DNA of 64,000 bases from Neophaeotheca triangularis. Its lineage: Eukaryota. Below the pieces are notes generated by a model. That model did no database searches and had not been told where the DNA came from. It saw only the letters and a program-made list of their open reading frames with translations. Within the stretch, counting starts at the first letter, position 1. Each line of letters begins with the position of its first letter. The stretch is from NCBI GenBank assembly GCA_054600435.1, contig BAAIJX010000044.1, positions 1 to 64,000 of the forward strand. The letters run 5' to 3'. Below are positions 5,445 through 50,491 of this stretch, in pieces. Both the position numbers and the translations under genes were made by a program.

Positions 5445-5466
5445 GTGACTTACAGCCAGGCCTCTC

Positions 5467-5570
5467 GCCTTCGGGCATTTGGTCAATTTGAAACAATACA
5501 GAGAAGATTAGCATGGCCCCTGCACTAAGGATGACACATGCAAGTAAAGTGAGCTACCAAGCTTTTTTTT
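5467..5570 (+). ncRNA. U6: U6 spliceosomal snRNA, copy 1
   Basis: GCC-TTCG-GGC 5' stem, ACAGAGA box, AGC triad, ISL GGCCCCTGCACTAAGGATGAC, oligo-T terminator. Confidence 0.97.
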
Positions 5571-5615
5571 GGCCGAGTTCGGGAAATGGGAAACAGGAGG
5601 CTACGTGGGCCGTGT

Positions 5616-5624
5616 GTTCGAGAC
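5616..5624 (+). promoter_or_regulatory. Downstream Pol III B box of U6 copy 1
   Basis: GTTCGAGAC 45 nt after the T-run; equivalent motif follows all four U6 copies. Confidence 0.75.
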
Positions 5625-6067
5625 ATGCTTGAGGTGAGGTTGCTTTTCTTTAATATTAGTATGACTACCTGAGGTTCTAAGGGTGAATCTAGTCCTCCTC
5701 ACACGTAGAAGAATAGAGAAGTCCTACCATGGAAAGGCCCGTATATATTGCTACATCAAATTGCCTAGCACTCGAAGCAGAAAATGTGTTCAAGCCTATG
5801 CTCCGCCCTTGTCACGCCTCAGCACAGACTCCTCGACAAGCAAAAAGAACTACGAAGCGAGTAATTCTCCTCAATCCCCTGGACACACCATAGAGTACCG
5901 TGAAATCGCTACTAGCACCCTCCGTACCGCCATAAACCGCCTATCCTCTGCCACCTATCTTCTGCCGCCCTTCCTCTGCCGCCCATTCTCTGCCGGCCCA
6001 GCTACGCCACCCGAGCGTACAGACCAACGCTGTTTCTTTCACACGACCCTCAATTGCGTCCAAGACA

Positions 6068-6897
6068 TCAGTCATCCAGCCCGTACTCCCACGCCCATGT
6101 GTAGAGATTCACCCCGTTTTCAACAATCCATCTCGCAAACCTCGAGGCGTGATTCGAACGCATGGCCTTCAGCGCTATCTGTGCGCGCAGACTAGCATTG
6201 GCGAGAAGTAGGTGCTTTAGCTGTTGGGTGGTGATTGTTTGCTCGTTGAAAGGCACAGCGGCGAGCAGAAGGATTCGGACGATCTCGCGATGGCCCGGGG
6301 TCGTGGCGTATGGGTGAAGAGACTGATTGATCGTGTCGAAGGCTTTGTCAGGTCGAGCAACGAAGATGCGGCGAGTGGATGTCAGGGTAGCGTGAGCGGC
6401 GATCAAGAGATACTTTTTCAGCTTCATGTAGTCGATTTGACGGAGCAGCGGAGGAAGAGGCACGTAGTCGAAAGATGCGTGGATTTGCTGCACGAAACGA
6501 GTTGTCTTGTTTGCCTCGCTGATGACAAAGTCGTGAAAGAAGAAATGAGCCCGACACTCAGGACAGTTTGCTGACCCCTTTTCAAAACTCCGCGTTTCCG
6601 ACCACAAGCGCACGCATTCTTGGTGAAAAACGTGGCTGCACGAGTCGTTACCCTTGATCGTTTCGTTCTTCTCGCTCCTCTCGGTCAGTGGCTCGAGACA
6701 GATGGCGCATTTGTCACCCTTTTTTGGTCCGTTGTATTTGTGAAGGCCGCTCCAGAATCTGCCTGCGGATCGTGGCTCGCTGTACTCGAGACAATGCGCC
6801 AGGGCGGTCGGTAGGTAAATTGGGAATACTGTGGACATTCAAGTCAGCTTGGAGCGAGCTCTATGGACTCGATCGGTCAACGCTTACAGTGTGCCAT
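6068..6897 (-). CDS. RING-H2 zinc-finger protein (putative E3 ligase), paralog 4
   Basis: ATG GCA CAC T, intron 6887-6829 (GTAAGC..GCTGAC..CAG). CAICLE..CSHVFHQECVRLW..CPECR. Intact ORF. Confidence 0.88.
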
Positions 6898-8559
6898 GTT
6901 GACTCAGGGTCCTCGAATACTGCAGAGTTGCGGTGATATGGTTTGCGGTGATATGGTCTGGTTGAAGGTCCGCCTGGAGTCTGTAGTGTCAAAGAACGAG
7001 GAGCGGTGTTGTCTTCTTGGTGTTGCTTTGCCAGTTGAAAGTGAGGGTGAAAGTCTTGGCGGAAGTCGAAGGCTGTTGGTGTCAAGCCTACGGTAGAGCA
7101 ACGCGGTCATGCCAGCCTGGAAGAGAAGCTGCAACAGTAATAGATTACAGCACGATGCGAGTATGACGCTACTGGGAGGTTTTCGTAACCAAGAATGAGC
7201 ACATCTTTGCTCTCGAAGCAAAAGAAAAACATTTGATAAAGATATCGTGAAGCAGCGTCCGGTGCCGAATGTCGAGGCTCGAAGCTCAGGGGCAAATGAG
7301 CCATCTTACATGAGCTTGTGACTATACAGAGTGTGTTTGATATGCAGGTGCATATTTACTACGTTCGGTCCAGAGATGTACAATGAGAACGTTACGAATG
7401 ACGAGGAGTGGAAGACGGTGCTGCCCTGAACATGTAGCTCTTATCAAGCTCGGCTACGAGATTGCTGCGGTACCCATAATCTGATCTCTTTGTAATGCAT
7501 ACTGTTCAGACAAAGGAAGCAGAATGATTGATCTAAGATGGTTCCCCTTTATCTCGCCCCAGGGCTTGTACATCCATAGACAGACGAAATCGAGGGACAA
7601 CATTGACCCATCGTCAACGGTGGCTCGTAGTGGAAAGAGGAAGTACAGGCAGGCGGGAAGCAGTGTGCTTGAATTAAAGGCAAGCCTGCGGTGAAAGCCC
7701 GTTGTATATCAGGCTCTGTTAGGTAGGAGGTGTTTAGGGAACGCACGGAGTAGGAGGACTCATTAGCAGAGTAACACTTGAGCGCATGAGCTCGAGGATC
7801 AACGATCGTGGAGTTGGTATAGACCTCAAATACGGCGGCTATCTGAGTGTCACGCTCCCAGGAAAAGACTGAGAATTTACCGGTGGGAACGATCGAGGAG
7901 CTTTACAAGTATGGGCTGGAAATTGGCATGGACATGGTGCAAAGAAAGGCTTCCGTGCTGAGAGCTAAGAAGAAACAAAGGACACATTATTTGGCAGTGT
8001 CTCTGGGCGAAAGAGTTTCTTCTACGGACCAATAGGCATATCCGATCGTCAACTTGCTCTTTCTTTCCAGCTATGTTTCCCAGGATTGTATTAAGTAAGG
8101 AGCTAAAAAGTAGCTGGTCTCTTTCCCTTCGTAGCTTCACGATGTTGGCTCAAAGGCTGCATCATACGACTTGGTTGCCTAGTTGACTCAGTCATATCGT
8201 ATGCGTCGATGCCGTGTCCGTGCCTTGGTCATTTTTAGTCACCGCCTCTCCGTACAGTACCTTCGTTGCAGGCTTACCTTGACACCTCGCGTGTGTCTCA
8301 TCCTCGGGGCTGCACTTTGCCGTGGCGAGTGCGTGCTGTTTGATCGAGGCAAAGCAGCCGGCCATCTTTGTATTTGTTGTCTTCCGTTCGACAGATCATC
8401 CGTTGGCCATCTCTTGATTTCCCTGCTTCAAGGTTCCCCCCTCTTGTTTGACACGAGTCGCCTTCCCCGTCCTTTCCTGCTCCGCTCGGCGACACTCAAC
8501 CCTCGGTATTTCACCCTCGAATTGTTGCGTACAAGTCAACCGCCTTTGAAGCGACGACC

Positions 8560-9434
8560 GTAGCGAAGCTCAAGGCATTGTGAGCGTCCTGCGGGCTGAG
8601 ATCATCTGACACCTGCGGGTGTACGTGCACTAGCAATCAAAACATCGCATAACGGCGGTCAATAGGGCTACCATCCAGAGTGTTGGCGTGGTCGTGGAGT
8701 ATGCACACTAGCTGGCGAGATGCTGGCGTGCTGGCGAGTGGGTAATGGAGTCTGTTGACATTGCAAAGGCCGTTGAACACCTGGTAGGAGGCTGTGAGCG
8801 CCGTGTAGGCAGCAGCCAGCAGACTATTTCTGAGTTTCGTTGCGTCGGTGTATCGAAGTTGAGCATTCAAGGATATGTGACGAACGGTTGCGCGGATGAT
8901 GTTGATACAACGCTTGGTTTGCTTCGCCTCTTTAATCGTATAGTCGCCGAAGAACCAGACTCTGTGGTAGCAGGGACAGCTGCCCTTTCCCCCTTTGTCA
9001 CATTCGTGGGCTGTTCAAGCCAGGCTACAGCCCCGGTGACAGACGTGCGCGCAGACGGTATTGCCGGCTGCCGATTCGTTGGTCTTAACTATCGCTTAGG
9101 GTTTCGAGGCAGATTGCGCAGCTGTCGCCGGTGTCTTCGCCCTTGTTGACGAGCTCGTCGAAGAGGTTGCCTTGTGAGGGTGGAGGGTCAATGGCCAGTC
9201 AGCTGACCAAAACCGGTGGAATGAATTGGTCATGCACTGCGGAGCAGTCATCAATTTGGACTTCAGAGATAGTCGAGTGGATGCTTACTGTGGGCCATCT
9301 CGGTATAAGCTCTTTGAGGAGCACGCGGAGAGGTTCGGAGGCAGTGGGAAAAGCTCTATTACCCTTACAGTCCGGTTTCCACAGTAAGTTCAGGGGAGAT
9401 TTGGATGGAGGGCGAAGTATTGCGTCTCGAACAT
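8560..9434 (-). pseudogene. RING-H2 family paralog 5, strongly degenerate
   Basis: Fragments NTVCAHVCHRGCSLA*..CPCYHRVWFF (TGA at 9017-9015) and TKLRNSLLAAAYTALTAS resembling paralog 4 (MKLKKYLLIAAHATLTS). Ends approximate. Confidence 0.65.
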
Positions 9435-10417
9435 GAAGGTGAAAGGTAGCAGATGTTTGCAACCGCTCGTGGACGCGTTCACGGCGAAAGCCATAGGCTG
9501 GCTGCCTCATGTTTCAATATCACGAAGAGGGAAGGATGTATGTACTGCTATCGGGACTTTTCTCCTAGTAAGGTTTTTTCCAGCCCTCGGGCTCATGTCA
9601 ACGATTTTGTGGTAGGCGTGCTTTGATAGGGCCTTGTTCAACCAGAATCTTTCTTTGTCAAGTAGCTCGATTCCATTTTGCTGGTTTCAAAGATGACGTG
9701 AGGACAATCGCAAACAAAGCGTCATCGTAGGCTGCCGCTTGAAGGTAATTTGGCGGATGAGAACAGCAGCAAGCCTAGAGTAAGGATTATCTCACGATAT
9801 CAGCGCGGGCAGGATCTCGAATGGTTCACAGCAATGCCAGCGCTCAAAGGGTAAATAAGAGATTCTTGTAGTAAGTACAGGCAGACAGTGGCCAACAGGC
9901 TTGCTATTTGACGGACACGGGAAGGGTGGAAAGAGTATTTGGAGAACAGCGAGATCAAAAAGGCAAATTACCCTCTTCTCCAAGACCTTGCGAAGAGCAA
10001 GAGCGTGATGAAAAAGGAGTGGGTCGCGTCAGCTAGAAGTAGTGCGATACTAGCGACACAGTGACCCTAAGAATGTGCAAGCACAGAAACTTAGGATCTG
10101 GCGCCAAAAATAAGATTTATCTCAAGGAGGTCGATGACACTCCGTTTCAGAGATCAAACTGAAACTGAAGAAAGGTTAGCACGAGTCGTCGGTCAAGTGG
10201 GAGGAATGATACGAACAGAACAGATGCTACACCTGGAGGAGCCAAAAGGCTAAAGCAAAGTGGGTTAGTAGGGAATATCGAAGGTCTGATAATGTCGAAA
10301 CAGCGTACCAAAGTGTGCTGGGGAGAAGGGAAAGAGGAAGAGGAATCGAAAATGGAGGGAGGCTTGAGTTGTAGTCTCCCAGCCCCCTGCCAAGCGGACC
10401 GTGCCCTCGACAATCAC

Positions 10418-10591
10418 CACACAATCAATGCCCAGCTCTTCCTCGGGTTTCTATGCACGCCAAGGCACAGTTATCACTTGACCGATTGATACGCGTGGTC
10501 CTGTTGATTGTGAGGGGGGCACAGACCAAGTCGCAGGAACAAAACCAAGCTGCCCTCTCTCTCTCAACCTTCTTCCTTTCTTCTCTCTCCC
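10418..10591 (+). promoter_or_regulatory. U4 upstream promoter blocks shared with U1
   Basis: CACACAATCA, ACGCGTG, TGATTGTG, GACCAA, CGCAG, ACAAAACCAAGCTGCCCT, CAACCTT and a pyrimidine tract occur in the same order and similar spacing upstream of U1. Confidence 0.75.
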
Positions 10592-10720
10592 ATCCGAGTG
10601 CAAGGGCGTTATGATTACCTGTGAAGATTTGTCTGAGGTGTCATTATTGCTAGTTGAAAACTAGGTTTTTGACTGCTCCTGTTGGCCTTCGGGTCGGCAG
10701 GGAATTTTTGGCAAAACACT
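10592..10720 (+). ncRNA. U4: U4 spliceosomal snRNA
   Basis: 5' ATCCGAGTGCAAGGGC complements U6 GCCCCTGCACTAAGGAT (stem II). K-turn stem-loop CTGTGA-AGATTTGTCT-GAG. TTGCTAGTTGAAAACT (stem I). 3' UUCG hairpin. Sm site AATTTTTGG 10703-10711. 3' end approximate. Confidence 0.92.
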
Positions 10721-13152
10721 TCGAAGCTGTAGTGACAGCAATCTTTCTTTCATCATGATATCGGCTGGGCGCAGCTGGTATGTGAAGAAGGAGTCATTGG
10801 ATTAAGGCCTTGAGGTGGACTTTCTTTTGCATGCTGTGGATCCGCGTATCGCACTTTTGTATGTCGTCGTGGAAGCATAGCTACAGATTCACTTCACGTC
10901 TTGAGGTGTGTTAAGTTACAGTCCTAAGTGTGAGAAATCATCGCTGAATATGATCAAGTATCAAGGCCCGGTAGGAGGCCGGAGGCGGTCATGTCCACCT
11001 CTGCTCCCATTTCGCTCCTCTTTTGCCGTTGACCTGTTACGAGAGCACTTCATGCGATCTGCTTACGCGACTACGCTGGGCTGGCTTTTGAAGTGGAGTG
11101 GCATCCAATTAAAACTATCCGTCGGGGGAGTCTACTGCTATTCGACTATTCCACACGCCTTCGACTACGACGAGTACTATGCAGCCGCTTCAGAAAGCTT
11201 CGCCGAAGGTGAGCACACATGGGAGCCTGGTTGTCTCGGGGATGATGATGTTCACTCTACCTCACCTCAGCCGTCTCCGCCCTTCGGCACCCTACAGAGA
11301 TTCAGAGTGCATTTTGCATTCGTGGCCACGCTGCGCTTTCTGATGGGGAAGACAGTCTTTGCGGCGAGAGGTCTTCGTCGAAGGGGTGGATTGCTATTCG
11401 ATCTTCTCATGCGCCCTCGAACCTCCACTAGCATTGAGCTGCCATAGCATGTCCGTCGTCTTGGATGCTCTTTTCATGCAAGGAGCGTATGCTGACCGCA
11501 GTACATAACTGCAAAGCGTAGATAATCTCACGCGCGAGCTTGAAGGACATTATATGCGCAATTATCGACACCCACAAAGACACCTTCTCTCTCCTCGTCC
11601 CTGTCGTATAGCCCTTTCGCCACTGCCTCCACGCCAACACCACTGCCATTACATCTTCCCATAAGCAGTTCCTTGGCCAGCAAGAAAAAAGAAGAAAAAA
11701 AGACTCGAATAAAGAAAGCCAGTGCTGGAACTTCGAGGCTGACTTTTTTTGTCGGTGCAATTGCCTGGAAACACAGCAAGAAGACACGATCCACATACCC
11801 TCCAAGGCCATACCAGGGATCCGGGCGAGCTGTTTTAATCGTCCAAGTTCCCGGAAGTCATTCCAACGATGGCCTTCCAAAGCGTTTGGCCAGAGAATTC
11901 AGCGGGAGTACGAAGCGGATCACTCGCGGGGTCACATACTCTTATTCCTCGAGCTTCACCGCCGCAAACTGCAAAGCGGCCAGCCTGTAGCAAAGAAGGG
12001 CGCAGGCGGTAGGTACGCCGTGTTTGGAGAAGGAGGGTCGCTAATGGCAAAACAGGAGATAGGCAAGCGTGGTATGAACAGGGCATAGACAACAGAAGTC
12101 GCGTGCAGGAAGAGAGTAGAAGAGGAAGAGTTGGACAAAAGAAAGATGCAGTCAAAAGCAGAAAGGTATATTTCGATAGTAAGGCAAACACTTTCCCGGC
12201 CGATTTAACGGTCACGCGAGCTGTTGCTGTTAGAACCCCTGTTGTTTCCCTTGTTCCTCTAGTAGCGGTTCTCGTTGCGAAGATGACAGTAAGTCTCTCT
12301 TGCAATCGCCTTTCCGGCCTGCTGCGACCAGCGCACTCCGTATCACTAGCAGCCCGATGACTGGAGGAGCAGTTTGCTTTACCGTTATGAGCACCCCGAA
12401 CTTGAGGAGCAGCTATGTTTTCCCTGGCTCGCAGCTTTCAAGTCTCGCTGGTTCGGGTTAGTTTCTTCTAGAGGCAGGCAAGTGAATTGAACCTTAGGCT
12501 GTTGCGGACCTTTTCCGATGGCTAGGATCTTTTTCTCTAGTCTGAGCTTATCTTGTATAGGTCACCACGCTACAAAGGGGAAGTCGATGAGGAAGAAAAT
12601 GTCCCTCATCGGCTCTAGCGGGCGCTCTCGCTACAGTCTCCTCGAAAGAACTGAAAGAAGCACATGACAGGGGGCGGTAGCAAAACCCCCCGCCCAGGAT
12701 GGTGACGGAAGTCAGGCTAAGAATACAACCACAAATGTATGAGCTTCAGTAGCACTAGTACTGGTTGAGCTCGCGATCAGCTCAGCGGCCTGCTTTAGAG
12801 GCACCGTGCCAATGGCCAGGGTAACTGCTCAAGATCGCAACATGTCAGGCGCCCGCAGAACCGCGATTGACGGCGGAGTAGCGAAGGCTGGTTTGATAAA
12901 GACGGTAGCGCAATGAAAGGTGGGCTGTAAGCAGGGAACACATGCCCGGTGATTACTGTATCTATCTTCTCGGACTTAGGTATGAATGCTTTCATTATCG
13001 TTCACACCGGGCGTCAGAGCGTGGAATAGCAAGCTCGTGTCACCCACACTTGGATGATCCAAACCGCCGGAGTCTGACGAAGGCAATGTCCGCAAGCCTT
13101 GCCCATTGTATCATAACCAGCCAGATCAAGCCGATCAGCGTGCTACATCCGT

Positions 13153-13926
13153 TCAAGCCCTCCTCGTGTTATCATACCCCCATGCATAAGGCCGCAAGCC
13201 CTCCTCCTCCAGCACCTCAACCGCCACCTCTTTCCCATCAACTAGCAGCTTCAACCACTCATCCCTCACCCCTCTCATCTCCCTCGGACAATGCTCCATA
13301 ACCTGCAAGACCCTGACCACGCCCTTTGCGAAAGTAGTTCCCGCCTCGTGCGCCTGGAGCTGCTGTTTCTTCATCCACTCCATGAAGTGCATCTTTTGAG
13401 TCCATGAAGTCGCCACCACCCTCTCTTTGCAATGTTTCAGCTTCTGATAAAGGGCTTTCTCCTCTCCCTCCGTCCGTACCATGAGCTCCACTTCCCCCTT
13501 GTGCCAAAGCCTAATGAAGTGTTCGCGCTTTTGAAAATTCCCAGGGTTACGGACGCGCTCGACGATGGCGGCAATGTACGCTTCATCCGAAGGTGAAGGT
13601 ACTTGATTGAAGAACTTAGCAGCAGCGAGATTAAGGCGGGTGCGGAGGTGAGAGAGCTGGAACGAATGGCGTTCATCGAGGCCACGGAACCAGATGGCGC
13701 GGGAAATGGCGAGTTTTTGATCGCGAGAGGCTTCAAAGTTGCTGCGGAGAGTGTATTTCCAGTCGTCGGGGTTGTGGGCCATGTCGCGGGTCATTGCTTC
13801 GGAGCTGAGGTCGATGGGTATAGGAAAAGGAGGGTTTTGGATTTTGGTTGCTCCTTCGTGGGTGAGGTGGCGGTGGGCGAGGGCCGCCATGATGGCGTCG
13901 AAGCCGCTGCCTGCTGGAGAGGCCAT
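13153..13926 (-). CDS. Hypothetical protein (~257 aa)
   Basis: Uninterrupted ORF from ATG (MASPAGSG..) with protein-like composition; no recognised domain. Confidence 0.7.
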   Translation of the reverse strand: MASPAGSGFDAIMAALAHRHLTHEGATKIQNPPFPIPIDLSSEAMTRDMAHNPDDWKYTLRSNFEASRDQKLAISRAIWFRGLDERHSFQLSHLRTRLNLAAAKFFNQVPSPSDEAYIAAIVERVRNPGNFQKREHFIRLWHKGEVELMVRTEGEEKALYQKLKHCKERVVATSWTQKMHFMEWMKKQQLQAHEAGTTFAKGVVRVLQVMEHCPREMRGVRDEWLKLLVDGKEVAVEVLEEEGLRPYAWGYDNTRRA

Positions 13927-14160
13927 AATGGAGGGAGTTCGAGTGTGTGACGGGGGCTTGCACTTGTTTGAACGGGTAGAGATTGTTTTTGGAGTCGGAT
14001 AGACGTGGGAAATTGAGAGCACCCTGAGAAAGGTTCGGTATGTAGTTTTATGACGCAGAGGAAGGGCAATGATTTAGAGGTTGAACGGAATCGTGTCGTA
14101 GTTCTGAGGGTGCTTCTAGAAGGAACAGCGAGAACACCCAAAGTGAAAGTGAACAACGCC

Positions 14161-14173
14161 TAGGGTTAGGGTT
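14161..14173 (+). repeat. Short interstitial telomere-type motif (TTAGGG)2
   Basis: TAGGGTTAGGGTT followed by CCCTAA. Confidence 0.6.
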
Positions 14174-14614
14174 CCCTAATCATTTCTTCTACGCGAACGA
14201 CAAGACAATTGAACCGAGGTTGGGAACGCAGCGACATAAAATACCCATTGCGGCCGAATACATCCATCTACTGCATCACATCAAATGGAACAGGCTTAAC
14301 GATAGATCACCACTTGACGTTGAGTCGAGGAAAACGATAGATAAGGGACAGTAGCCAGATGTCGTTAAAGAATAATGATGCTTCATCGGCATCTAGATTT
14401 CCCATATCATTGAGATATTTAGTCGGGGTTGTCATGCTACTAGCGCTCGCTAAACTCGAGGTGAAGTCGAAACGCCAGCCGAATTGGGAAAAGTGGACAT
14501 GGTGGATCATCTCCACCCGAGCTTGGCTCCGACTTCACCTTTCGTCCCGTCTTGTGAACTTCTGCTTCTTCTTCCTCCCTACATCATCAACATCTCCCGC
14601 CGTATCACCAACAA

Positions 14615-15652
14615 TCAGCTCAATACATCTGCATAGTCATGGTCAACGTTAACGCTCGACGAGATTGCGGTCTCGACTTGCCAAATGCGGCTTCGGGAAG
14701 TCGAGCCTCACCACCGTTTTCCCACCCGGAGATGGAATGGCACACCGCAGATGGCACCAAGAGCCGGGTCGGATGAAAGATCGGAGCAGCCTTAAGAGAC
14801 ACGGGACGGCTGTCGAGGGAGCAGAGCCATGCCGTATGAGGCGACAGCAAGACCGGAATCGACAAGACCGGGATCACTAGATACAGACAACAACGAGGAC
14901 CCCCAATCCCCCGGGCGAGATTTTGCGATGAAGCACCCGTCGGGATGATCTGGGAATCGAAATACCTCTTGTTCTCTATAAGCTGTCGTTGTCTGTCGGG
15001 CGGAGCAACACCTCCGCTCTTCCCCCTAGAGTCGTTACTGCTATAGACGCGCTAATCCGGCCACGGGGCCCTGCTGTGTTTATCCGGATCACGCATGTCC
15101 ACGGCCCAGGTCTTGTTCCGTGTCCCTACCTTGTTGCATCGGATGCTTAGCCCTCTTGCAGTCCATTGCGGTGATATGGGCGGGTTTCGCTGTTTCAATC
15201 GGATTGGAGCCTATTCGTCGATAGACTCTCGTGATCGCATGAATGGTGGTGGGAGCGACCTTTCGATGCTTTTCGGCGGCTGAGAGCCATGATGTCCTGT
15301 GCCAAAATCACAGGTTTACGGTAGGTGCTTCGGGTAGATGTCAGAAAGCCCCGTTTGTCTCCTAGCTCTTCATGCTTGTTGTACTGGCAGCGGTGAGCTT
15401 CTAAGCCCGTGGAAGACCGAATGCGCACTTGGCCGGAGCAGCGGCAGTGATCAGACTAGCTTGTCTCGCTACTCCTGCGTAAACCTTCAGCCGGCTTTTG
15501 TACTTCCGCAGATGGGTGGTTGTCGCAGGTATGTCTCGAGCTCTCGTTTCGCTGTCTTACGATGGTCTAGATCTTGCTGGCGTCTGGCGTCGGCGAGCTC
15601 TTGAGCCCGTATAAGACCGGCGGTCTGCCGTCTCTACTAGCGTATGAGCTGA
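14615..15652 (+). ncRNA. Candidate large structured ncRNA (unidentified)
   Basis: Nested long-range helices with G-U pairs on the + strand, closed by 14615-14626/15642-15652; no credible ORF. Confidence 0.4.
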
Positions 15653-16249
15653 CTTCTAACAATGGGGAGCGATGGGCTGTGGGGCGTTGCCGAACTTGAG
15701 TGCTATGGAGTCGAATGGTCTGCTCTTGGAACTTTCGCTTTGCTTCCTTTTTCCATCATCTCAGGCATCGGCGAGCTTCCAAGCCCGAACAAGGCAAACT
15801 GCTCATCCCTTTCCAATATCTTCGTCATCCACGTCACCGGCGAGCTTTGGCCCGTGTGAGTCAGCATACCTTGGCGTTGGGCGTCGCACACCATTTGGTC
15901 ACCTCGTGCAAGCCAAATCCTCACCTGCTTCTTCCTTTACAAAGCTCTCTCAGCATCGCAAAGTCACTTCCATACTGCAAATGCAATTTCAATCGCACAA
16001 CTGCTTCCATACTACAATGCCAACTCCACAGCAAATGTCACTATACCTACTCACACTATCCACCGCCCTCCCCGCGAAAAAGATTCTTCTGCGCCTCGTT
16101 ACCGAAGCTCTTAGATCAGTATTCCCCTGCAATCTCTGGTAGAGCTACACTGCCTCATCAAGCCTCCGCTAATCTGAAACATCGCTACAGGCCCCTCTTA
16201 TGAGCTGTAATGGCTCCGTCGACTCCACCCTGGGTATCGTGGTCTCGCC

Positions 16250-17420
16250 TTAGCAGGCCCCTTACACACGGTGGGGAAGGATTCTGGGTTGGCGAACCTC
16301 CCAATCAAGCCCCAAAGCCAGACAAACCCGTGGCCTCTACGGGAGGATCTTGGTTAAAACCCCGGTATCCGCACGCCGCGGTCAACACACAGCCTAGAGG
16401 CGTCTTCTGCTCTTCTCAAGCCCCCGCTGTCGGACGAAGTTAACCGACGATGCCCTGAGGGTTAGCCTCAAGATCTTGGTTAAAACCCCGGTGAAGGCGC
16501 CCAGGTGTAGGGGTGTTGTCGGCTTCTCTAAGCTACGCTGAGGAAGAGTAATGGACCCTTGTTGCCGGCTACTTGGATGATGAAGGCAGTTTCGGCTCGC
16601 AGAGTCCAGGTCGGCGGGCTGTGAAATTGACGAAGAGGTGGAGCTGGCTCAAGGCTTTGGTTGTGGCTTTGCATATACCCCGTAGGGAACCCCGATCGTC
16701 GGCCAGAAGCTAGGAAGTCACAGTTGGGGCGGGACAGCGGTGATTCTCCCGTTGCTCGCTTTGCTGTTGTCGGAAAGGCTTTTGGTTGGCTTTCGAGGCT
16801 GTTGGTTGGGACCGGAAAAAGAAGCCCTTTGGCGGCAGAGCTGTCGCAGGCCTGTGTAAGCCCACTGCGCTGGTAGCTGCCATGAAAGCATTGAAGCTGG
16901 GGGCACCCTTACGCAAGTCCGGAGGAAGACGCTGTGCGCTACCGCCGCTGCCTCCCCACGGAGCGCACTCCGGTCTGCCGCCTTCATACTTCTTCCAGCT
17001 TGCCCACTGAAATGGACGAAGCCACGTCGGCTACTCAAAAACTCACCATACCATTCACGGGTCCCGTGGAACGCTCGTCGAACTGGCCCCGCCACCCGCG
17101 AAGTCACGACAGCGTTTCCTCGACCTTTTTTCTCCTCACGGACCTGGCAGAGGTGGGATGTCGGCAAAGCCCTCGTAAGTCCAGAAGAAACTGCCGGGGT
17201 AGTCTTGAGGCGGCGTCGGCGGTTGACTTTTGTTCTTCTTCCCCTCCTGGCGACATAAGTCGTCGACATAGGGATGCTGTGTCTTTCTCGAGAGTGAAAC
17301 CACAGTGTCTTACTTCTGCTGCTGAATATCTTCAAGCGGTGGTTGTACGGAGGGTGTGGGGTTAAGGCTTATCTTGCTTTTGAAGGCCGTTTGGGGAGCG
17401 ACGGCGGGGAAGAGTAATGA
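16250..17420 (+). ncRNA. Candidate large structured ncRNA (unidentified)
   Basis: Nested helices (16261/16860, 16301/16809 and others), many hairpins, internal 21-bp direct repeat; no credible ORF. Confidence 0.4.
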
Positions 17421-18271
17421 TCCAGATAGTTTTACAACCTCACGTTCGCGTCTGTTTCTCGTGCCTGGCTGTTTCCTCACATCCGCCATTGCTCTGATTC
17501 TGTGTTGCGATGTCCAGCCTGTAATCAAACATTGTACCAGCAAGCTAGTGCGTATTGTGTTGGTTTCCCTTGCTGAATACCTTTGTTCCATGAAGCCCAT
17601 TTTCTTTGTTCCCCGACTGGATGTGTGCTTTCGCTCTCTCCCTTGCGCAAGACATGACACCGTCTCGAAACAAGGCCGCCCTATTCACCTTTTCTGCCGT
17701 CCTCCAACTAGCGCCACGGCTGTCCCGCCGAATGGGAAAGGCCCGGACCTTGCATGACCGCTACTCAAACTCTGACCCTCTTTCCGTTCTTTTTGACTGT
17801 GATGCGCTCAAAGATACGCGATTCTAGCCAAAGAGCAAAGGTTCTTGGTATTAGTGGTAGTTATCAGAGACATATGAGTGGTTTCGGGGCCGATGTAAGA
17901 TTTTTAAGGGGTAGATGGCGAAATCATTGCGTTGAGGTGACTGGGTTAGAAAATGACAGTGTTTTGTTTGAGGATGGCTAGGCATTTTCGCCTGGAAAGC
18001 AATTTTTACTACGAACGAGGTCTACCTGGCGGAAAGCAAGGGTATAGTCTTTGTACAATGGAATCACAAAACTACAGGGGCACAGAAGAAAAGGAGAAAC
18101 ACGATTGAGATGCAGACGGTTCGGATACACGCTATAGAACGCCGAGACAAGCAAATGCAAAAGCCAAACTAGTATAGCCAAAGATCACTGGACTCCTGCG
18201 ACCAAACCAAGCCCGGTACCAGCCCTGACTATAATGATACACACCCGACACGTTGCCAACTTACCTATTCT

Positions 18272-19240
18272 CTACAGGGGCACAATCAACCCATCACCGT
18301 CCTGCATGTCAAGCAACGACATTTCCGCAATATCATGGTCGCTGGGATTTGGGTGAGTTCCGTGAGGCCATTCGGCGATTTCTTCGGGGTGGGGCGTCCA
18401 GGAGCTGCTGAGAGAGAAGGCTGGGTAGGTGTTGTGTTCCGTGACCACGATGACGGCGCGCTCGATGGTACCCTGACGCAGCTCGCCGCGTAGGAACGTG
18501 ATGACTCGGGCCCAGCGGGACGTGATCCATGCAGTGTGGCGGTAAGCCATGGCGTTCAGTAAAAGCTGGTTTTGCATGATGTGGTGGTGGATTGTCAGGG
18601 TTTTTATAGCCCTGAACCGGGTAATGAGAGTAGGTAGGAGAGTGACGACACCGTCAAGGAAGGTCAAGCGCTCGAGGACAAGGTGGAGGTGCTGGATCTC
18701 GGGCTCGTACATGGGGTGGAGGCGTAGCTGCAGGGCGTTGTTCAGTGCGGGTGTGAGGGTGTGAAGGGAGGTTCTTACCGTGTTTCGCTGGAGGATGGCC
18801 ATGCGCGCTTCGTTCCAGTATCGAGCCGGGAGATTGGAGGGGAGGCTGCTCAGGACGTGGTGCACAGAGCCCGCGAGGCTCAGGTCGCCGGGCAAGATGT
18901 ATGGGACCGTCACCGCATCTTGAACGATTTGCACAGCGATCTCTGATGGCATGGCTGCTAGCATGGCGGCTGTGAAGGCTCTTCGGTTGTTGCCAATGCG
19001 AAGGTCCACTGGACCGTGACGGTACGGGCCTAGGCCCAGAGTCGGCGGAGCTTGGGGTGCTTCGGTGGATGGTGCAGAGGTAGAACCTACGGTACGAGCA
19101 GCAGGGGTTGGGGTGTCTTGCATCGATACGTCGCTGTCGTCGGAAATTGGGGATTGTTCCCGGTTGCGTTTGGGGGCCTCTGGACGTTCAAGGCTGTCCG
19201 AGGCCTCACGTTTCTTGCTCATCTGTTCGTTGTCAGCCAT
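18272..19240 (-). CDS. Hypothetical protein with F-box-like motif
   Basis: 322-aa ORF; MLAAMPSEIAVQIVQDAV resembles the F-box start LxxLPxEIxxxI. Confidence 0.7.
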   Translation of the reverse strand: MADNEQMSKKREASDSLERPEAPKRNREQSPISDDSDVSMQDTPTPAARTVGSTSAPSTEAPQAPPTLGLGPYRHGPVDLRIGNNRRAFTAAMLAAMPSEIAVQIVQDAVTVPYILPGDLSLAGSVHHVLSSLPSNLPARYWNEARMAILQRNTVRTSLHTLTPALNNALQLRLHPMYEPEIQHLHLVLERLTFLDGVVTLLPTLITRFRAIKTLTIHHHIMQNQLLLNAMAYRHTAWITSRWARVITFLRGELRQGTIERAVIVVTEHNTYPAFSLSSSWTPHPEEIAEWPHGTHPNPSDHDIAEMSLLDMQDGDGLIVPL

Positions 19241-19714
19241 CGAGGCGGTGTTGGGTAGAGGGAAGGGGAGATGTTGCGCGTGCCGTTGTTGTTTGAAGGG
19301 TCAGAAGCGTTAGAGTATTTAGGTACTGAAACGCACTGCAAAGTGTCTGATCTGGTTCCATCTCTCCTTCGACCTCGAAGGCGCGTTATATGTTCGCCTC
19401 GACAAAGAGCCAAAACCACAAAGCAATTGTGTCAATCAATGAAGCCCCTGTACTGTCGAAGAATGGCCTTTGTACTCTGCTTTGTCCTGAGCCACAAACA
19501 ATGGAGTTTGGGTCCTGAGATGCAGCCTGGCGAAACTGTGTTCTTGGCGTTAAGGGGTAAACCCTACCTCGAGCAACGTCAAGGGTGAAACGCTACAACG
19601 CGTCGAAGTCGGTAAACAAGGAGCACATCGCTACAACCACGCATCAATTCCATCAACTCCTGTCTCATCACAGACTTAGGTCAACGATCAGCTGCCTTCA
19701 TTAACAACGCAAAG

Positions 19715-22240: not shown

Positions 22241-22556
22241 AGTCGTGCCAGCTATTGTACGGATGAACGACGGTGCATTGCAATCAGATTCTTTGCCTTT
22301 CCCCACCTGCAACCATTCGAATTCTACATTGACGATGAGGTGAGGTTGGAGTAGCCTCCGGCATCTCCACATCCGCCCCGGACCCCGCCCAAGTCTAATC
22401 GCTTATCAGCGTTTCCCCGCGCGCGATAAGCTTATCAGCCCCCCCTCCATCTACATCACCACCTTCCGTCCTCCCTCTGCCTTTCCCTGCTCTCATCCTC
22501 CTCTCATACGACTACAACATCCCTTCCCCATTCAGCCGAATCCAAAATAACCAACA

Positions 22557-34685: not shown

Positions 34686-34788
34686 AAAAAAAGTTTGGTA
34701 GCTCACTTTACTTGCATGTGTCATCCTTAGTGCAGGGGCCATGCTAATCTTCTCTGTATTGTTTCAAATTGACCAAATGCCCGAAGGC
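34686..34788 (-). ncRNA. U6: U6 spliceosomal snRNA, copy 2
   Basis: Near-identical to copy 1; B box GTTCGAGTC at 34649-34641; GTATAT about 30 nt upstream. Confidence 0.96.
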
Positions 34789-36738: not shown

Positions 36739-36768
36739 CACCACCACCACCACCACCACCACCACCAC
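36739..36768 (+). repeat. (CAC)n microsatellite in the SDR 5' region
   Basis: About 10 tandem CCA/CAC units. Confidence 0.85.
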
Positions 36769-36816
36769 TACCAACGAACCCGCCTTTCCGCCCAATCTCC
36801 ACCAGTCACACCAACC

Positions 36817-40438: not shown

Positions 40439-41298
40439 CAACTACTAAGGCGTGCCTTTCGAGAAAGGCCGCTGTGCCAATGTTTCTCATGGGGGAATGC
40501 ACGCAGACCATGTAGGCGTCTCAAACACTCAGCTTGCAGTGTTTGTTGAGAAAGGTACGGTACTAGACACGAAAATGCGATGGCGCGTTTTGTCACTCAC
40601 ACATTCAAAGCGATTCGCGTAGAGTAGCACTGTTCACATACTAAACGTTTGTGCCGTCTTTATTCGGCTGGGTATTCGTCGCACTGCTCGCCCGCAGTCT
40701 GTCCCAATCGACCATGTATACTTGCTCCAGATCTTTGCCCTCCTCCCCCTCCTCTGCGATTTCGAGTTTTCATAGTGACCTCGAGATCGATCCGTTTTGC
40801 GAAAATGGGTTGCAGTTCGTCCTCCAAGTTTGACGAGGCTCCGGGCCTGAGATGGTTGGCTTCCGAGTTCAGCCAGGTATCGATAGATGCTAAGGGGTAT
40901 GAGACTGAGGTTTTAGCGTTAAGAGAGCTGCGTCTCCGTGGGGCTCAATAGATGCTCCAAAAGCTAAAGGAGTGCCGAGTCTGTTATTGGTATTTGCGAA
41001 TTTAAGTTAGCGATCGTTAGACGCTCCCGAGGTCATTACTGATGTCTAGGAACATGAGCCGTGAGTACATGAAGATGATTTGAGCCGTAGCCATAGTCCA
41101 GTATTGTAGCTGTAGCCATAGTCAGGCGAGCTTCAAGTGAATAATTGAACGGTAATCTTGAAACACCTACCAGATCTACTACTCCCGACCTGCCTGCTGG
41201 AATGTCGAGGGTATACATACCGCACAAAAACTTCCACTCTTGGGGGCTGTGACTCCCGAGTTGCAGCCCCCCGTTCTACCCGAAAGGGTAGTCTGTAA

Positions 41299-41402
41299 GC
41301 CCTGGGGGCATCTGGTCAATTTGAAACAATACAGAGAAGATTAGCATGGTCCCTGCACTAAGGATGACACATGTAAGCTAAAGTGAGCTAAAAACTTTTT
41401 TT
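41299..41402 (+). ncRNA. U6: U6 snRNA variant, copy 3 (may start at ~41242)
   Basis: ACAGAGA, AGC and ISL intact apart from one C>T; altered 5' stem and 3' tail; B box GTTCGAGCC 41420-41428. Confidence 0.9.
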
Positions 41403-43402
41403 GTTTTTGCAGGTCTCGCGTTCGAGCCTGCATAGTCTCAGCAGAGCTGGGATTTCGTGAGCAGTCTTACTACTGCATGATCGATACTCGCTATTTTTTG
41501 TATGAGGTCTTGACTCACTGTTTGTCAAATAATCTCCTGCAAGCATCGAATGGACTTGTATTTAAGCATTATGTGAATTAATCAGGTCAATTTTCATTTT
41601 CGATGGCCGGCCCTGTTTCTCAGCAGCGATTTTGCAACCTGCAAGTTCTACAGCTTCACGCTCCACAAGGGAAGCGCTCCTATGTGAGAACTATACGTAA
41701 ACCTCAGCACTCGGTAACAGTAATACCAATTAGCAGGAACGGGTTGACAGCGAGTGTTCAAGACGAATCCCTACAACAAGCATGGAGGCATAATGCATAG
41801 CTCTACAACCTTCAACAAACGATCCCGCAAGATCTCGCTCAAGAATCGATCGTCTAAGCCGAGTCATCGTTTCCCACATCACTCTTACAGCATTGCGTTC
41901 ACTTCTATCAACAGAGCCACAGCCCCACCTATAAGCTATGCGGTACTGCGCTCAAACAAATCTCGAGAACCCTAATTCCGCAAGACAAAGACTAACGACA
42001 AGGTCAAAAGCTCCAGCCAGCTCCTTACGAGGACCAGTCCCGAGCCATACATCGCTATCTCACTAGGACTTGAGAGAAACGAACACCTGCTCGAAGCCCA
42101 CCAGGGAACCTATAGTGCCCGAGATGTCTGCGTGCTCAGAATCAACGTGAACGAATAGACTGTCGTCGGTTGCTAGGAGCGTGCCAGTAATGTTAAGAGA
42201 ACAATCACACGGCCAAAGCACTCGATCCAGAACACGCTCTGGTATTGGGAAAGAACATTGATATTGCGATAGCCACAACACAAGACGAAGAAGTTTGAAC
42301 TCTTAGACATAACAAAAAGCCAATAAACCAGCCGATACCCATTACCCCTTGACAAGTCCACGGCATCACCGTCCGCAATCCCACGCGCCCACGTCCCGTG
42401 TAGTGCGAACAAATCTCAAAACCTTACTCCCTCCCAACCTTCCATCCCTGCCAGCAAAAACAACCGCCATCGCAATAACCTATACCCTCCCCACGCCGAA
42501 CATCCATCCCCCCACCCTCTCCACTCAACCAAGAAAAGCCAGTACGAGACGCAATGCCCTAACCACCGGGAAAGATCAGCACAGTCCACAACCCTCACAC
42601 CCCGCCCAACAAAACCGCCTCAACAGCCAAACAAACAGCTACGCAGCACGGCAATCCATCCCCTCTCACTATCACTATCAAAAGACTCACCCCAAAACCC
42701 TCGGGTTCGAAAAAGCTGACTACCGCCCCCTCTCACACCGCTAACAGCAAACGAAGCTAGTGGCATGCCAAGCACAGCTATCCCCTAGCTTTGACGATGT
42801 CGAAAAGCGAGACTACCGAGAGGGGGAAAGACAGCGAGACGACATTAATCTGGAGCCTTGGGTGGTTCGGGTTCATTGAGGTTTGAGTGGGATGTCGCGG
42901 CTGGGAAATTTTGGTCTTGCTGTGTAGTGCTGTGTAACATCTGTTTTACCACTGTGTTTCTTAGTTGCGATTGCTGTTCTCGGTGGGGGGGGTGGAGGGT
43001 AGGCGTGGCTAGGCGTGATGGTGGTGGCTGCGTTGTTGCGTCTTTTGGGCAGTAGTAGGAAGAGAGGTTGGAGGGGGGGATTAAATTGTAGGTGCTGGGA
43101 GAGAGGCGGTAGGCTGAACCTACGCTATAGAAGATTCGGAGACGGACATAGCCAGAAGCTTGGATGTGGCGTGAAAAATCGTCGAGGTTTTGGTAAGCAA
43201 GGGAAGCGTGAAACTCGGCAATTTTACGAAAACAACTGAGAGTAGGAGGGAAGATGCCCGTACTAACTCGAGCTAAATACGCCGAGCTTTCCCGACTGCA
43301 CAGCGCAGCCGAAACATCATCCCCAATAGCCATAACCTCCCAGCAAACCCTTCCAGTCTCCATCCCCCACGCCCTCTCCCAGATCCGCAAACCCAGCTCC
43401 AC

Positions 43403-47087: not shown

Positions 47088-47843
47088 TCAAGCGAAAACC
47101 CCCCCACTCCTCCTAGCCCTCGACCCCATCGCGGAACCCCTCGAAATCCGCCCAAACTTGTTGATCAAACACCCCCACAGCCCATACCGGTCGAAACCCG
47201 CAACGATCCCGACATCTTCCTCCAGCGCCTCGACAAAATCCCCCCCGACCCTGTCAGGCGGGTGAATGGTATAGTGCACCGAGAGCCCCAAGCGGCGACA
47301 CGCCGTATACCAATAAAAAAGCCTGATGACGACATCCGGGTGCGGGTCGTCGGAGAAGAGGAGATCGATGTACAAGAGGCGAGCCGGGCGGCGGGGATGG
47401 GTGTTGGGTGGGTGTTGGAAGTCTGGGAAGTGGATTTGGGGGTGTTGGTGGCGGAAGAGGGTTATTAAGCCGTTGAAGTCGAAGTTCGTGATGCTGACGC
47501 GGAAGTCGTGGGTTTTGGTCGAGTGGAGCATTCTTGTTACGTCGGTTTTGTAGCGGGGGGAGAGGGCGAGGAGGAGGTTGGCTATTTCCAGGCGGGAGGC
47601 TGGGGTGGGGGGGAGGGAGAGGAGGTGCGCGGCGTAGATTTCGTCGCGGATTTCGGGTGGGAGGGTGTCGAAGGTTGGCCGGGGCTCGGCGGTGGTGGAT
47701 GTTTGCGTGTCTTGAGTGTCGGAGTCGGCCTTGTTGGATGCTTGGGTCTCGAAATTTGGGTCGGCATCGGGCGTTTCAGATTCTGAGGTGCTTGATTGGA
47801 TGGGCATATTCGATGCCAAGGGCTTTGACAGGGAATGCATCAT
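47088..47843 (-). CDS. F-box-like domain protein
   Basis: TFDTLPPEIRDEIY motif; 251-aa ORF (alternative start 47807). Confidence 0.75.
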   Translation of the reverse strand: MMHSLSKPLASNMPIQSSTSESETPDADPNFETQASNKADSDTQDTQTSTTAEPRPTFDTLPPEIRDEIYAAHLLSLPPTPASRLEIANLLLALSPRYKTDVTRMLHSTKTHDFRVSITNFDFNGLITLFRHQHPQIHFPDFQHPPNTHPRRPARLLYIDLLFSDDPHPDVVIRLFYWYTACRRLGLSVHYTIHPPDRVGGDFVEALEEDVGIVAGFDRYGLWGCLINKFGRISRGSAMGSRARRSGGVFA

Positions 47844-48164
47844 AGATGCAGGGGGTCTTTATCTAGATCTAATGTTAGAGCCAAAACAGTCAATCAGGAG
47901 CAGATAAAAAGAATTACCTTTATCACAAGATAGGTAAGTCTAAATGTCGTACACAGTAGTAGTGTAGGCTTGCTTCAATTAGAGGTAAAGTTAGAGGTAA
48001 AACTAACAATCAGAGGTAGAAATTTAGGCTTACCTCTATGCAGAAATGGGCTATAAAAGCGTGCAACACGCAGTGAAGTTGCGCTTGCTTCAATCAGATG
48101 TGAAGTTAGATAGTGCACTAGACGTGTAAGGTAATGTAGGGGCAGCTTCACCTTTGTCTTGAAG

Positions 48165-49040
48165 TCGGGGTATAGTCCGGTATGTTCGAGAATTGGAGTC
48201 TTTCGGGGATGGGGGATAGTTGTCGAGTAGAGAAAGGAACAACTTGTAGAACTAGCGGATGAGCTAGTTTCGTAGCCAGTAGTCATGTGCGATTTGCCAA
48301 ATCTTGCCCGGACCCACGTGCATGTTTTTCACGACGACTTTCAGAGGTTATAGAGTATGCTTGAGACTTGCAACGGTGCTATAGACGCAACGGATCTGGT
48401 TGTATAGTCCGGTTTGTTTAGGAGAGCTTGTAGTCTTTCAGGGTAGTCTGTCGGAAATAGGTGTTAGTTACGAGTAGAGAAAGGAACAAGTAAGAGAACT
48501 AGCGGAGGAACTGGTTTTGTAGCTAGTAGTTATGTGCGATTTGCTCAGTACTACATACATGTTTTCGACGACGACTTCTAGACGTTATAGAGTACGCTTA
48601 GGAGTTGTAACGATGCTATAGACGTAGTGGATATTAGCTGTATAGTCCGGTGTGTTCGGGGTAGTATTTCGGGAATAGGGGATAGTTCTCGACTAGAGAA
48701 AGGAATAAGTCAGAGGACTACCGGAGAGCTAGTTTTGCAGCTAGTAGCCACATCGCTTTACTCGGGGCTACGTGTATGTTCCCGACGAAGACTTGCCGAC
48801 GTTAAGAAGTATGCGTTGAACTTGTACCGATGCCGAGGGCGTACTAGAATTCGGTTTGTAGATAGCGCCTATGTAGTCTCGGGCGGATTATTGCCGAGTA
48901 GAAGAGGGTACATGATCGTAGAACTAGCGGAGGAACCGATTTTATAGTAGGTAGCTGTGAGCATTTTATTAGTAGCTATATGCATGCTGTCGATGGAAAC
49001 TTTGAGCTGTCAAGGAGTATATAGGAGATTCTTACCGATA
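48165..49040. repeat. Degenerate tandem repeat, ~4 units of ~235 bp
   Basis: TATAGTCCGG at 48171, 48403 and 48641; AGAACTAGCGG-like blocks near 48248, 48495, 48712 and 48920; TA-rich. Confidence 0.8.
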
Positions 49041-50387
49041 CTGTCGACATGGTAGAAACCCTGATTTTCCTAAGCCGAGAATATCTGCTTCTATAGCTCA
49101 TAGCCGATTGCCTATCACTAATCGAGAAGTTTGACTGTACGAGGAATCAAATTTAATGCTAGACAGATAGCGTCCAGTTCTGCCTCGAGGCCCGTAGCTC
49201 GATGTTCGTCATCGATCGAAACTTTAGCAGGTCTAGGAAGGTATGAGGCGTCTGATTCGATAGTGGTATGAGTTTCCGATTACCGGATCATGTAGTAGGT
49301 AGTCCGTTGGTAGTCTGCTCGGAGTTTGTCGTCTGTCGACACATCTAGCCGTTGATGCGCGTGTTAGAAGTTCAGTCGATTGCCGTACATGCAGCCGAGC
49401 GCCGTACCCATACCGTCTAGCTAGATGCATTGATGTAGACTCACAGTGTAACCCTTTACAGCATTCAGAGCAATGCCGACTGTGTAGACACAGCGAAGAG
49501 GCTGGTCCCGTAAAATACAGCTATGTTTGACTTTCTCGAGGCCAGAATGTCTTTCGTTGAGCTTTCCAGCCGTCCAGCACCGATTCAGGGCGGTTACTCC
49601 GCTGAGTCGATATACCCGTGGCCGCTGAAGAACCCGGTGATGTTCAAGCAATGCTTTCAGCTCTCCTAGGCAGTGTCCGAGACTGTGATTATGTAGAGGC
49701 ACTCGGAATGTCAAGTTGATGCTTCCATCTCTGCTGAGTAGTCGAGAATCACAACCGCCTTGTGACATGCCAAGACACGGAGTCAATACTTCTCCTTCGC
49801 TTGGGGAATAGTCCTAAACGCGATTTTCGAGGTTGTGGAGTCTCCGCAGCGCCTCGTCTTATGGGACTGTATTTATCCGGCAGCTCTCTTTCCAGTGCGT
49901 TGGCGATCTCATCTGGTACTACTTACCGGCTTCTTTTCTGTTACATTTTCGGCTCTGTGAAATTGTCGGCAGGAGGAATAGGAATTGCAATATAGAAGTC
50001 GGAAGGTTTAGTGATCTAATAGCTAGACCGCAAGGAGCCGATTCGGAGCGGAGTCGTGCTTGCGACTAAGGCCGAGAAAATGAAGTTGCCTGAAAGCAAA
50101 AGTTGGAGAAAACGTCGAATAGCTAGAACCTCCCTTTGTTTGATCTCAACTACGGCTATGTGTGAGTAGGTGCGGGCTGTCCACAGTGTTTGACTACTAA
50201 ACGTGGTAGGGAGGTAATCGGTAGGTTGTGGGTTGGAAAAGAGTAGTGCGATGTAAATCGAGGAAAAAGAGGTTGCTCACGTGCAAGTTGTAAAAAAAAA
50301 AGCAGCAAACAAACACAAAATACCTACCTCCCTGTCCTCGTCTCGAACCCCAGCCCCCTCTTTCACCTGACTCTTCCAAATCCGGCC

Positions 50388-50491
50388 AAAAAAAAGTTTG
50401 GTAGCTCACTTTACTTGCATGTGTCATCCTTAGTGCAGGGGCCATGCTAATCTTCTCTGTATTGTTTCAAATTGACCAAATGCCCGAAGGC
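50388..50491 (-). ncRNA. U6: U6 spliceosomal snRNA, copy 4
   Basis: Near-identical to copies 1 and 2; TATATATTTA upstream; B box GGTTCGAGAC at 50349-50340. Confidence 0.97.

Follow-up and report, generated by a model that had tools for sequence, protein, structure and literature searches.

A 64,000-nucleotide (nt) stretch of contig BAAIJX010000044.1 from Neophaeotheca triangularis (assembly GCA_054600435.1), referred to here as the window, harbors seven spliceosomal small nuclear RNA (snRNA) genes of four types, U1, U2, U4, and four copies of U6, located on both strands within 45 kb (5467-50491). Seven genes in 45 kb are non-random at any plausible copy number of snRNA genes in the genome. 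Each of the seven is predicted to be a transcription unit of its own. We regard it as fairly probable that they represent a non-random neighborhood of independently transcribed snRNA genes, which was built by local birth and death of gene copies and does not form a splicing-centered island. U1, U4, U6a, U6b, and U6d look canonical; U6c and the U2 copy resemble pseudogenes or variants in the course of divergence.

Genes were called in the whole window with Rfam covariance models at the curated gathering thresholds, followed by a permissive scan (E up to 1). The gathering thresholds yielded six of the seven genes, and U1 was added by the permissive scan only. The first-pass annotation of this DNA had listed U1, U4, and four U6 genes. 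All six are present according to Rfam, U1 with a score below its cut-off, and the list was incomplete in that it omitted U2. That the genes are concentrated, occur on both strands, and are embedded among orphan genes was borne out by the Rfam positions and by the small share of open reading frames (ORFs) with a Pfam family (6 of 118). No U5 gene was detected in the window, neither by Rfam at E up to 1 nor by a loop-I motif, which gave 0 matches with up to one mismatch. Searches of the window revealed no tRNA genes, no other Rfam families at E up to 1, and no additional snRNA fragments or relics (blastn, nhmmer). The features are compiled in the table.

Features of the snRNA gene neighborhood, with positions in the window; exons, introns, and promoter assignments are predictions
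Feature	Position	Strand	Sequence, score, or basis
U6a	5467-5566	+	RF00026, 79.9 bits (cut-off 44)
U2	10018-10259 (Rfam); 10018-10319 (our model)	-	RF00004, 84.5 bits (cut-off 46), model positions 1-192
U4	10592-10731	+	RF00015, 93.2 bits (cut-off 46), full length, model positions 1-138
U1	27541-27690	-	RF00003, 44.6 bits, E 5.7e-8, under the cut-off of 69.5
U6b	34689-34788	-	RF00026, 81.0 bits (cut-off 44)
U6c, variant copy	41299-41400	+	RF00026, 76.1 bits (cut-off 44)
U6d	50392-50491	-	RF00026, 81.0 bits (cut-off 44)
U2 exon 1	10319-10309	-	model
U2 candidate intron 1	10308-10250	-	59 nt, GUACGC..UACUAAC..UAG
U2 exon 2	10249-10217	-	model
U2 candidate intron 2	10216-10165	-	52 nt, GUUCGU..UGCUAAC..CAG
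U2 exon 3	10164-10018	-	model
U2/U4 divergent promoter region	10320-10591		upstream-region alignments
U4 upstream element	10539-10555		ACAAAACCAAGCTGCCC, exact match
U1 upstream element	27729-27745	-	ACAAAACCGAGCTCCCC, exact match
B box of U6a	5616-5624		GTTCGAGAC, pattern scan
B box of U6b	34641-34649		GTTCGAGTC, pattern scan
B box of U6c	41420-41428		GTTCGAGCC, pattern scan
B box of U6d	50340-50348		GTTCGAGAC, pattern scan
245-amino-acid ULM-like ORF	19715-20449	+	motif scan, translation
831-amino-acid ORF	23829-26324	+	predicted as 668 amino acids in the protein collection

The significance of this concentration was assessed by a scan statistic, with a genome size of about 33 Mb taken from the runs carrying this DNA. 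The expected number of seven-gene clusters in 45 kb is 1.5e-13 for an assumed total of 14 snRNA genes, 4e-9 for 50, 6.5e-7 for 100, and 1e-3 for 300. In the available portions of the literature, 14 snRNA genes are given for Podospora (PMC2441463) and 5, 32, and 44-45 for three Dothideomycetes, the latter being pipeline counts that may include small nucleolar RNAs. For U6, the mean per fungal genome is stated as 2.3 genes and the maximum as 20 (Canzler 2016, as cited in the available text of PMC5855946).

Further information on copies elsewhere in the genome was derived from the source run X1 (32.5 Mb of contigs), which was aligned as a whole to window positions 7900-27899; 8 of the 11 matching records were listed. 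One contig of 29,184 nt covers this segment with 0 differences at a flat depth of 129.9, and the other 10 records map to the U2 3'-end, the U4 ends, or the U1 promoter. Of the matches listed, four fall on the U2 3'-end with its flank (9974-10081), two to four on the U4 promoter with the 5'-end (10571-10612), and one on the 3' part of U4; another links a U2-like end with a 27-mer resembling the U1 promoter. Because of these records on U2 and U4 ends, a few other copies of both genes probably exist elsewhere in the genome. No other contig was found on the U1 body among the matches listed, and U1 appears to be without another copy of at least 80% identity in X1. With three snRNA genes in 20 kb, the segment 7900-27899 has hundreds of times the density of the rest of the genome.

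U6a, U6b, and U6d share 99-100% identity over 100 nt. The copy previously singled out as a variant U6 is indeed distinct: it corresponds to U6c, which is 92-94% identical to the other copies. All four alignments contain ACAGAGAAGAUUAGCAUGG, with the ACAGAGA box, the AGC triad, and the U4-pairing region in place, and the local U6 is canonical at GAUUAGC. Similarity between the copies is restricted to the gene itself and to about 30 nt before and 16 nt after it (approximately -30 to +116). The remainder of the 300-nt flanks gave no alignment between copies, and the long repeats of the window are the U6 genes themselves and no others. A tandem array, as known from human RNU1 and RNU2 with their tandemly repeated snRNA genes, was rejected on account of these unrelated flanks and the lack of paralogous neighbors.

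A TATA box near -30 precedes three of the four U6 copies (a, b, and d), with CTATATA at 5437-5443, about -30 of U6a, and at 50515-50521 ahead of U6d, and TATAT at 34813-34817, about -27 of U6b. The TATA pattern matched the window twice, at U6a and U6d, against 0.03 matches expected. All four genes end in a T-run terminator and are followed, 20-50 nt downstream on the gene strand, by a B box of the TFIIIC type (GTTCGAGNC). This pattern has 7 matches in the window against 2.64 expected, 4 of which belong to the U6 genes; the remaining ones, at 9424, 22097, and 26668, were considered as genes and read as chance matches, as they lack an upstream T-run or gene-like layout. The combination of TATA box, terminator, and B box did not recur elsewhere in the window. 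The four U6 genes are predicted to be RNA polymerase III units with an SNR6-like layout. In Saccharomyces cerevisiae, SNR6 has an upstream TATA box, an intragenic A block, and a B block past the terminator, about 120 nt after the gene. The genes of the window share with it the TATA box near -30 (three of four copies), the T-run, and the downstream B box of the GTTCGA type (all four copies). They differ in the shorter distance to the B box and in being present in four copies instead of the single one in yeast.

U6c looks degenerate. No TATA box was found in its upstream sequence, a C-to-U change affects the strand pairing with U4, and the UUUGGU/ACCAAA pairing between the 5' and 3' parts is lost. 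Its 5' hairpin is rebuilt and compensated, with GGUCCC replacing GGCCCC as judged from pairwise alignment and folds, and the B box is retained. A perfect hairpin, CTACCC-GAAA-GGGTAG, occupies 41263-41284, about 15-35 nt upstream of U6c, at the place of the TATA box in the other copies.

U4 resembles RF00015 members not only in its score but also in its Sm site (AAUUUUUGG in the Rfam alignment), 5' stem-loop, and pairing with U6. The complementarity of the U4 5'-end and stem I strand to the local U6 copies, noted already at first inspection, was reproduced in our calculations: U4 nt 1-17 form a duplex of -23.3 kcal/mol with U6a, U6b, and U6d and of -20.6 kcal/mol with U6c, and the stem I strand forms one of -8.4 kcal/mol with U6. 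The U1 candidate remains below the curated cut-off of its Rfam model but has an exact 5' ATACTTACCT, a CAUUGCAC loop of the U1A type, and a AAUUUUUGA Sm site; it carries the 5' splice-site-binding ACUUACCU, and its predicted fold is a four-way junction. Because of these hallmarks, the four-way-junction fold, and a promoter shared with U4, we accept this locus as a predicted U1 gene. A similarly short U1 of about 130 nt is reported for Aspergillus fumigatus in the available text of PMC2377427.

The element ACAAAACCRAGCT.CCC occurs upstream of U4 (-53) and U1 (-55), which are its only exact matches in the window. Allowing up to 3 mismatches, 4 matches were found in the window against 0.53 expected. 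Between this element and +1, U1, U2, and U4 have a CT-rich tract, and GATTGTG-type distal motifs and a GGCAC.G.CC block are located further upstream; the upstream regions of the three genes align with one another. U2 and U4 are arranged head-to-head with 272 nt between the proposed starts, and each has its own GATTGTG-type motif, GGCAC.G.CC block, proximal element at about -54, and CT-rich tract within this divergent region. The upstream element did not recur elsewhere in the window. This architecture suggests that U1, U2, and U4 are RNA polymerase II snRNA-type units whose upstream element lies some 54 nt ahead of the start.

Two spliceosomal introns, of 59 and 52 nt, most likely interrupt the U2 gene, and the modeled spliced product comprises 191 nt, compared to 192 positions in the Rfam model. 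As a candidate spliceosomal intron, intron 2 has strong evidence. It follows directly after AUCUGUUCU, eight nt beyond the branch-point-binding box. In the Rfam U2 alignment a 64-nt insertion stands against 12 nt in the model, and the 52 extra nt equal the length of this intron. Upon its removal, the 20-nt stem IIa (UUUCAG..CUGAAA) abuts AUCUGUUCU without a gap, as in the intron-less U2 of L032, a metagenome contig with snRNA genes described below. The global alignment score to L032 U2 is 136 for the spliced and 107 for the unspliced form. The gene contains an insert of the type GT..branch CTAAC..AG whose removal would restore a canonical snRNA. Its 5' site is weak (U at +3), with an alternative site 4 nt downstream. 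A strict intron-like pattern starts at 11 sites on both strands (128 kb), two of which are the U2 introns on the U2 strand; shuffled sequence averages 13.35 such starts.

The evidence for intron 1 as a candidate is weaker and consists of promoter spacing and splice signals. The promoter architecture shared with U1 and U4 stops about 60 nt short of the U2 5'-end drawn by Rfam, and a start at about 10319 would put the upstream element at -54, between the values for U1 and U4. Helix II pairing does not discriminate between the possible 5'-ends (-13.4 kcal/mol spliced versus -12.2 kcal/mol unspliced). Alternatively, U2 may start near 10260 without intron 1.

Introns of the mRNA type are known from the U6 genes of many fungi including Schizosaccharomyces pombe and from U2, U1, and U5 of Rhodotorula hasegawae, as stated in the available text of PMC5855946. 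Like these, the inserts in the U2 gene of the window are short GT..CTAAC..AG sequences in conserved snRNA parts, and one of them is situated near the catalytic center, just past the branch-point-binding box. Unlike these, the U2 gene has two candidate introns whose splicing is predicted, belongs to a Dothideomycete-like host, and bears non-consensus functional boxes in its exons.

Two functional sites of this U2 are altered. The branch-point box reads GUAGCA rather than GUAGUA, which is present in the Rfam consensus (GUGUAGUA) and in L032 U2. Between stem I and this box, CCUCCAG replaces A(A/U)GAUCAA (GGCU-CCUCCAG-GUGUAG). The latter change removes the ..AGAUC.. side of helix Ia: pairing of U2 with the local U6 is reduced to 4 bp at -5.5 kcal/mol, compared to 7 bp at -11.0 kcal/mol for L032 U2, with its own U6 and with U6a of the window alike. 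Stem I, AUCUGUUCU, stem IIa, the Sm site, and the 3' stem-loops are intact. The copy may be a pseudogene whose functional positions were hit, or else a variant that is expressed. The branch site of intron 2, UGCUAAC, is a perfect partner of GUAGCA, which we regard as an anecdote and not as evidence.

A separate observation concerns the U2 3'-end, where X1 contigs of other U2-like copies align for about 44 nt beyond the gene (9974-10017). This hints at a conserved 3'-end formation signal that may be common to the U2 genes of this genome.

The protein-coding surroundings were characterized using 118 ORFs taken from 141 listed ORFs of at least 110 amino acids. The Pfam-positive ones encode two RING fingers, an SDR, SLX9, a DUF7703 protein, and a PQ-loop protein, and none of these six has a splicing-related domain. 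The idea of a splicing-centered island is therefore not sustained beyond the RNA genes themselves. Its supposed ULM-like protein, a product of 245 amino acids, does have two tandem K/R-rich RWDV.PE motifs at its C-terminus (RKRRWDVEPE and KRSRWDVAPE, 17 residues apart). A tie to splicing did not emerge, as this ORF has no Pfam family and no Atlas hit and found only itself in word-indexed and full HMMER searches; one weak match besides itself lies outside the motif (E 8.8e-5). The several candidate structured RNAs proposed nearby did not hold up either, with no further structured RNA in Rfam and no recurrence of the snRNA promoter layouts. The ORF of 831 amino acids likewise has no Pfam family, and no homologue but itself was found among proteins of similar length.

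Five tandem, diverged RING-type paralogues with 23-34% identity are located at 290-9014 on the minus strand, two of which match RING-finger Pfam models, and U6a sits between the third and the fourth of them. An additional paralogue pair was found at 30.5-33.3 kb. Because of the five tandem RING-type paralogues and this pair, the region appears to be duplication-prone. Several repeats were also observed. Between U6c and U6d there is a 74-nt direct repeat (48224-48297 and 48471-48544, 86% identity, 247 nt apart), which was rejected as a structured RNA, since it folded no better than shuffles (z +0.19 and -0.24, plus strand). A 132-nt tandem duplication with 95% identity is found at 57256-57519 within the DUF7703 ORF, and a CT-rich 19-nt tandem repeat in 5 copies at 61223-61346.

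The snRNA genes are embedded in a part of a Dothideomycete-like ascomycete genome that is poor in genes but has many orphans and tandem duplicates. In the reading we favor, the cluster would have formed as snRNA gene copies were gained and lost locally, in a region that is permissive, fast-evolving, and prone to duplication. Through selection or gene conversion, only the functional blocks would have been kept alike. The genes would be transcribed independently and not be co-regulated as a splicing island, and the U2 transcript would need the removal of two spliceosomal introns to attain the canonical 191-nt form.

A number of observations argue against this explanation. No paralogous flank joins the four U6 copies, so that we infer their origin by local duplication rather than observe it. 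The U2 changes are confined to two functional boxes instead of being scattered, which is a poor fit to simple decay. The number and positions of snRNA genes outside the locus are derived indirectly, from X1 contigs. A run with the same organism label, X2, matches every one of the 30 bins of 7900-27899, together with the U2/U4 and U1 sites, mostly at 90-99% identity, but in pieces of at most 1.3 kb, and hence no physical linkage is seen in a relative. Finally, U1-2 and U6 of A. fumigatus are neighbors according to the available text of PMC2377427, which could mean an old, selected linkage and would then speak for a functional reading.

Data from other relatives are sparse. Run X3 covers only 12 of 30 bins of 7900-27899 at a depth of about 3, and run X4, which has the same organism label, gave no alignment to this segment. 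The best named protein relatives are Dothideomycetes (Acrodontium, Cladosporium, Zasmidium, and others). Because these are at most 70% identical, no close sequenced relative is visible.

Among the alternatives, a selected functional snRNA locus fares best, although we consider it unlikely. The genes would then share a nuclear transcription or processing compartment or a common regulation, with the variant U2 and U6c serving as expressed isoforms that build alternative spliceosomes, for example a GUAGCA-bearing U2 preferring UGCUAAC branch sites. The extreme density in the scan statistic would fit such a locus, as would the head-to-head arrangement of U2 and U4 and the promoter elements common to U1, U2, and U4; motifs in common are, however, to be expected among the snRNA genes of a genome whether or not they are clustered. 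If U1 is indeed without a second copy, an essential gene would reside inside the cluster, and the A. fumigatus adjacency of U1 and U6, as far as given in that source, points in the same direction. The variant U2 retains its promoter, intron signals, Sm site, and 3' stem-loops, and the branch site of its intron 2 matches the altered box, but the molecule is unable to form helix Ia with the local U6. In U6c, a B box and a compensated 5' hairpin persist, but the TATA box is lacking and the pairing of its 5' and 3' parts is lost. Furthermore, no splicing-related protein gene is present among the scanned neighboring ORFs.

Less likely still is a graveyard of pseudogenes, i.e. inactive duplicates or retrocopies that accumulated in a gene-poor region with the working snRNA genes elsewhere. 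The alterations of U2 and U6c at functional sites, the U2-like and U4-like copies found elsewhere in X1, and the orphan-rich surroundings are in line with this view. It does not account for the near-identity of U6a, U6b, and U6d, which persists despite unrelated flanks and is accompanied by similarly spaced TATA box, terminator, and B box, nor for U1 and U4, which combine exact upstream elements at the same distance with full canonical features. Marks of retrocopies (truncation, A-tails, target-site duplications) were not seen in the sequence inspected, and the U1 body was without another contig among the X1 matches listed.

The most far-reaching variant, in which a conserved selected hub with an expressed, twice-spliced GUAGCA U2 of rewritten helix Ia and a variant U6 builds or regulates an alternative spliceosome, appears improbable to us. 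An assembly artefact by misjoining of dispersed snRNA genes or collapse of repeats is very improbable: short-read graphs break at repeats such as snRNA genes, and several X1 contigs end within U2-like or U4-like sequence, but the 29,184-nt contig, from a run that may be the source rather than independent, spans 7900-27899 without differences, X2 covers all bins, and all snRNA flanks are unique sequence.

The clustering itself has counterparts in other eukaryotes. The window contains at least two snRNA types located closer together than by chance, like the mixed clusters of Arabidopsis and Drosophila. In the available text of PMC545797, ten snRNA clusters are described for Arabidopsis, seven of which are U1-U4 pairs, and four Drosophila clusters are cited. 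There, as in the window, neighboring genes are of different snRNA types and have separate promoters. The Arabidopsis clusters are read by the authors as duplicates of an ancestral linked pair, with U1 upstream of U4 in tandem at a distance of 180-300 nt and repeated as units. In contrast, the close pair of the window is U2-U4 in head-to-head orientation, the other genes are 5-16 kb apart, and there is no repeated unit.

Far tighter arrays are found in protists and metagenomes. A 2.7-kb region of the trypanosomatid Leishmania tarentolae contains U3, U1, 5S, and 10 tRNA genes, according to the available text of PMC2784804. On the metagenome contig L032 (a eukaryote, 54% GC), U6, a signal recognition particle (SRP) RNA with a partial model match, U5, U4, U1, U2, and U3 are encoded at 153-3259 on the minus strand; all seven small-RNA genes score over the Rfam cut-offs and share one strand within 3.3 kb. 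Both cases resemble the window in the packing of different small-RNA genes. They differ in their compactness and in the inclusion of tRNA, SRP, or U3 genes, whereas the seven genes of the window extend over 45 kb on both strands with protein ORFs in between. As a background, a 21-nt U4 string was searched in metagenomes, which gave 58 loci, all from distant eukaryotes as judged by nhmmer with the window snRNAs. A U6 hit was obtained in 1 of the 58 loci, and in an Rfam scan of the 11 longest ones only L032 had other snRNA genes near U4.

In fungi, the closest parallel is A. fumigatus, where U1-2 and U6 are located in the adjacent intergenic regions Afu4g12490/12500 and Afu4g12500/12520 (Table 1, PMC2377427). 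This, too, is a filamentous ascomycete, with U1 and U6 one protein gene apart and more than one locus for each, but only two genes are involved and they are not treated as a cluster in the available text of that paper. A description of a mixed snRNA gene cluster in filamentous fungi was not found in the literature searched. With respect to the suggested atypicality of such linkage in fungi, the U1/U6 adjacency in A. fumigatus has already been published. Mixed snRNA clusters are a known phenomenon in plants, flies, and protists, and no new mechanism is needed for the one described here.

Our analysis provides a concrete picture of snRNA gene organization and promoters in a poorly studied fungal lineage. 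It also yields usable signatures of RNA polymerase III (U6) and RNA polymerase II snRNA-type promoters, the kind of element employed for guide-RNA expression. The U2 gene represents a probable case in which a gene for a component of the splicing machinery itself needs to be spliced twice, and it is relevant to the long-standing proposal of intron gain in snRNA genes via reverse splicing near the catalytic center. If expressed, the altered U2 and U6 copies would offer a simple fungal model for variant snRNAs.

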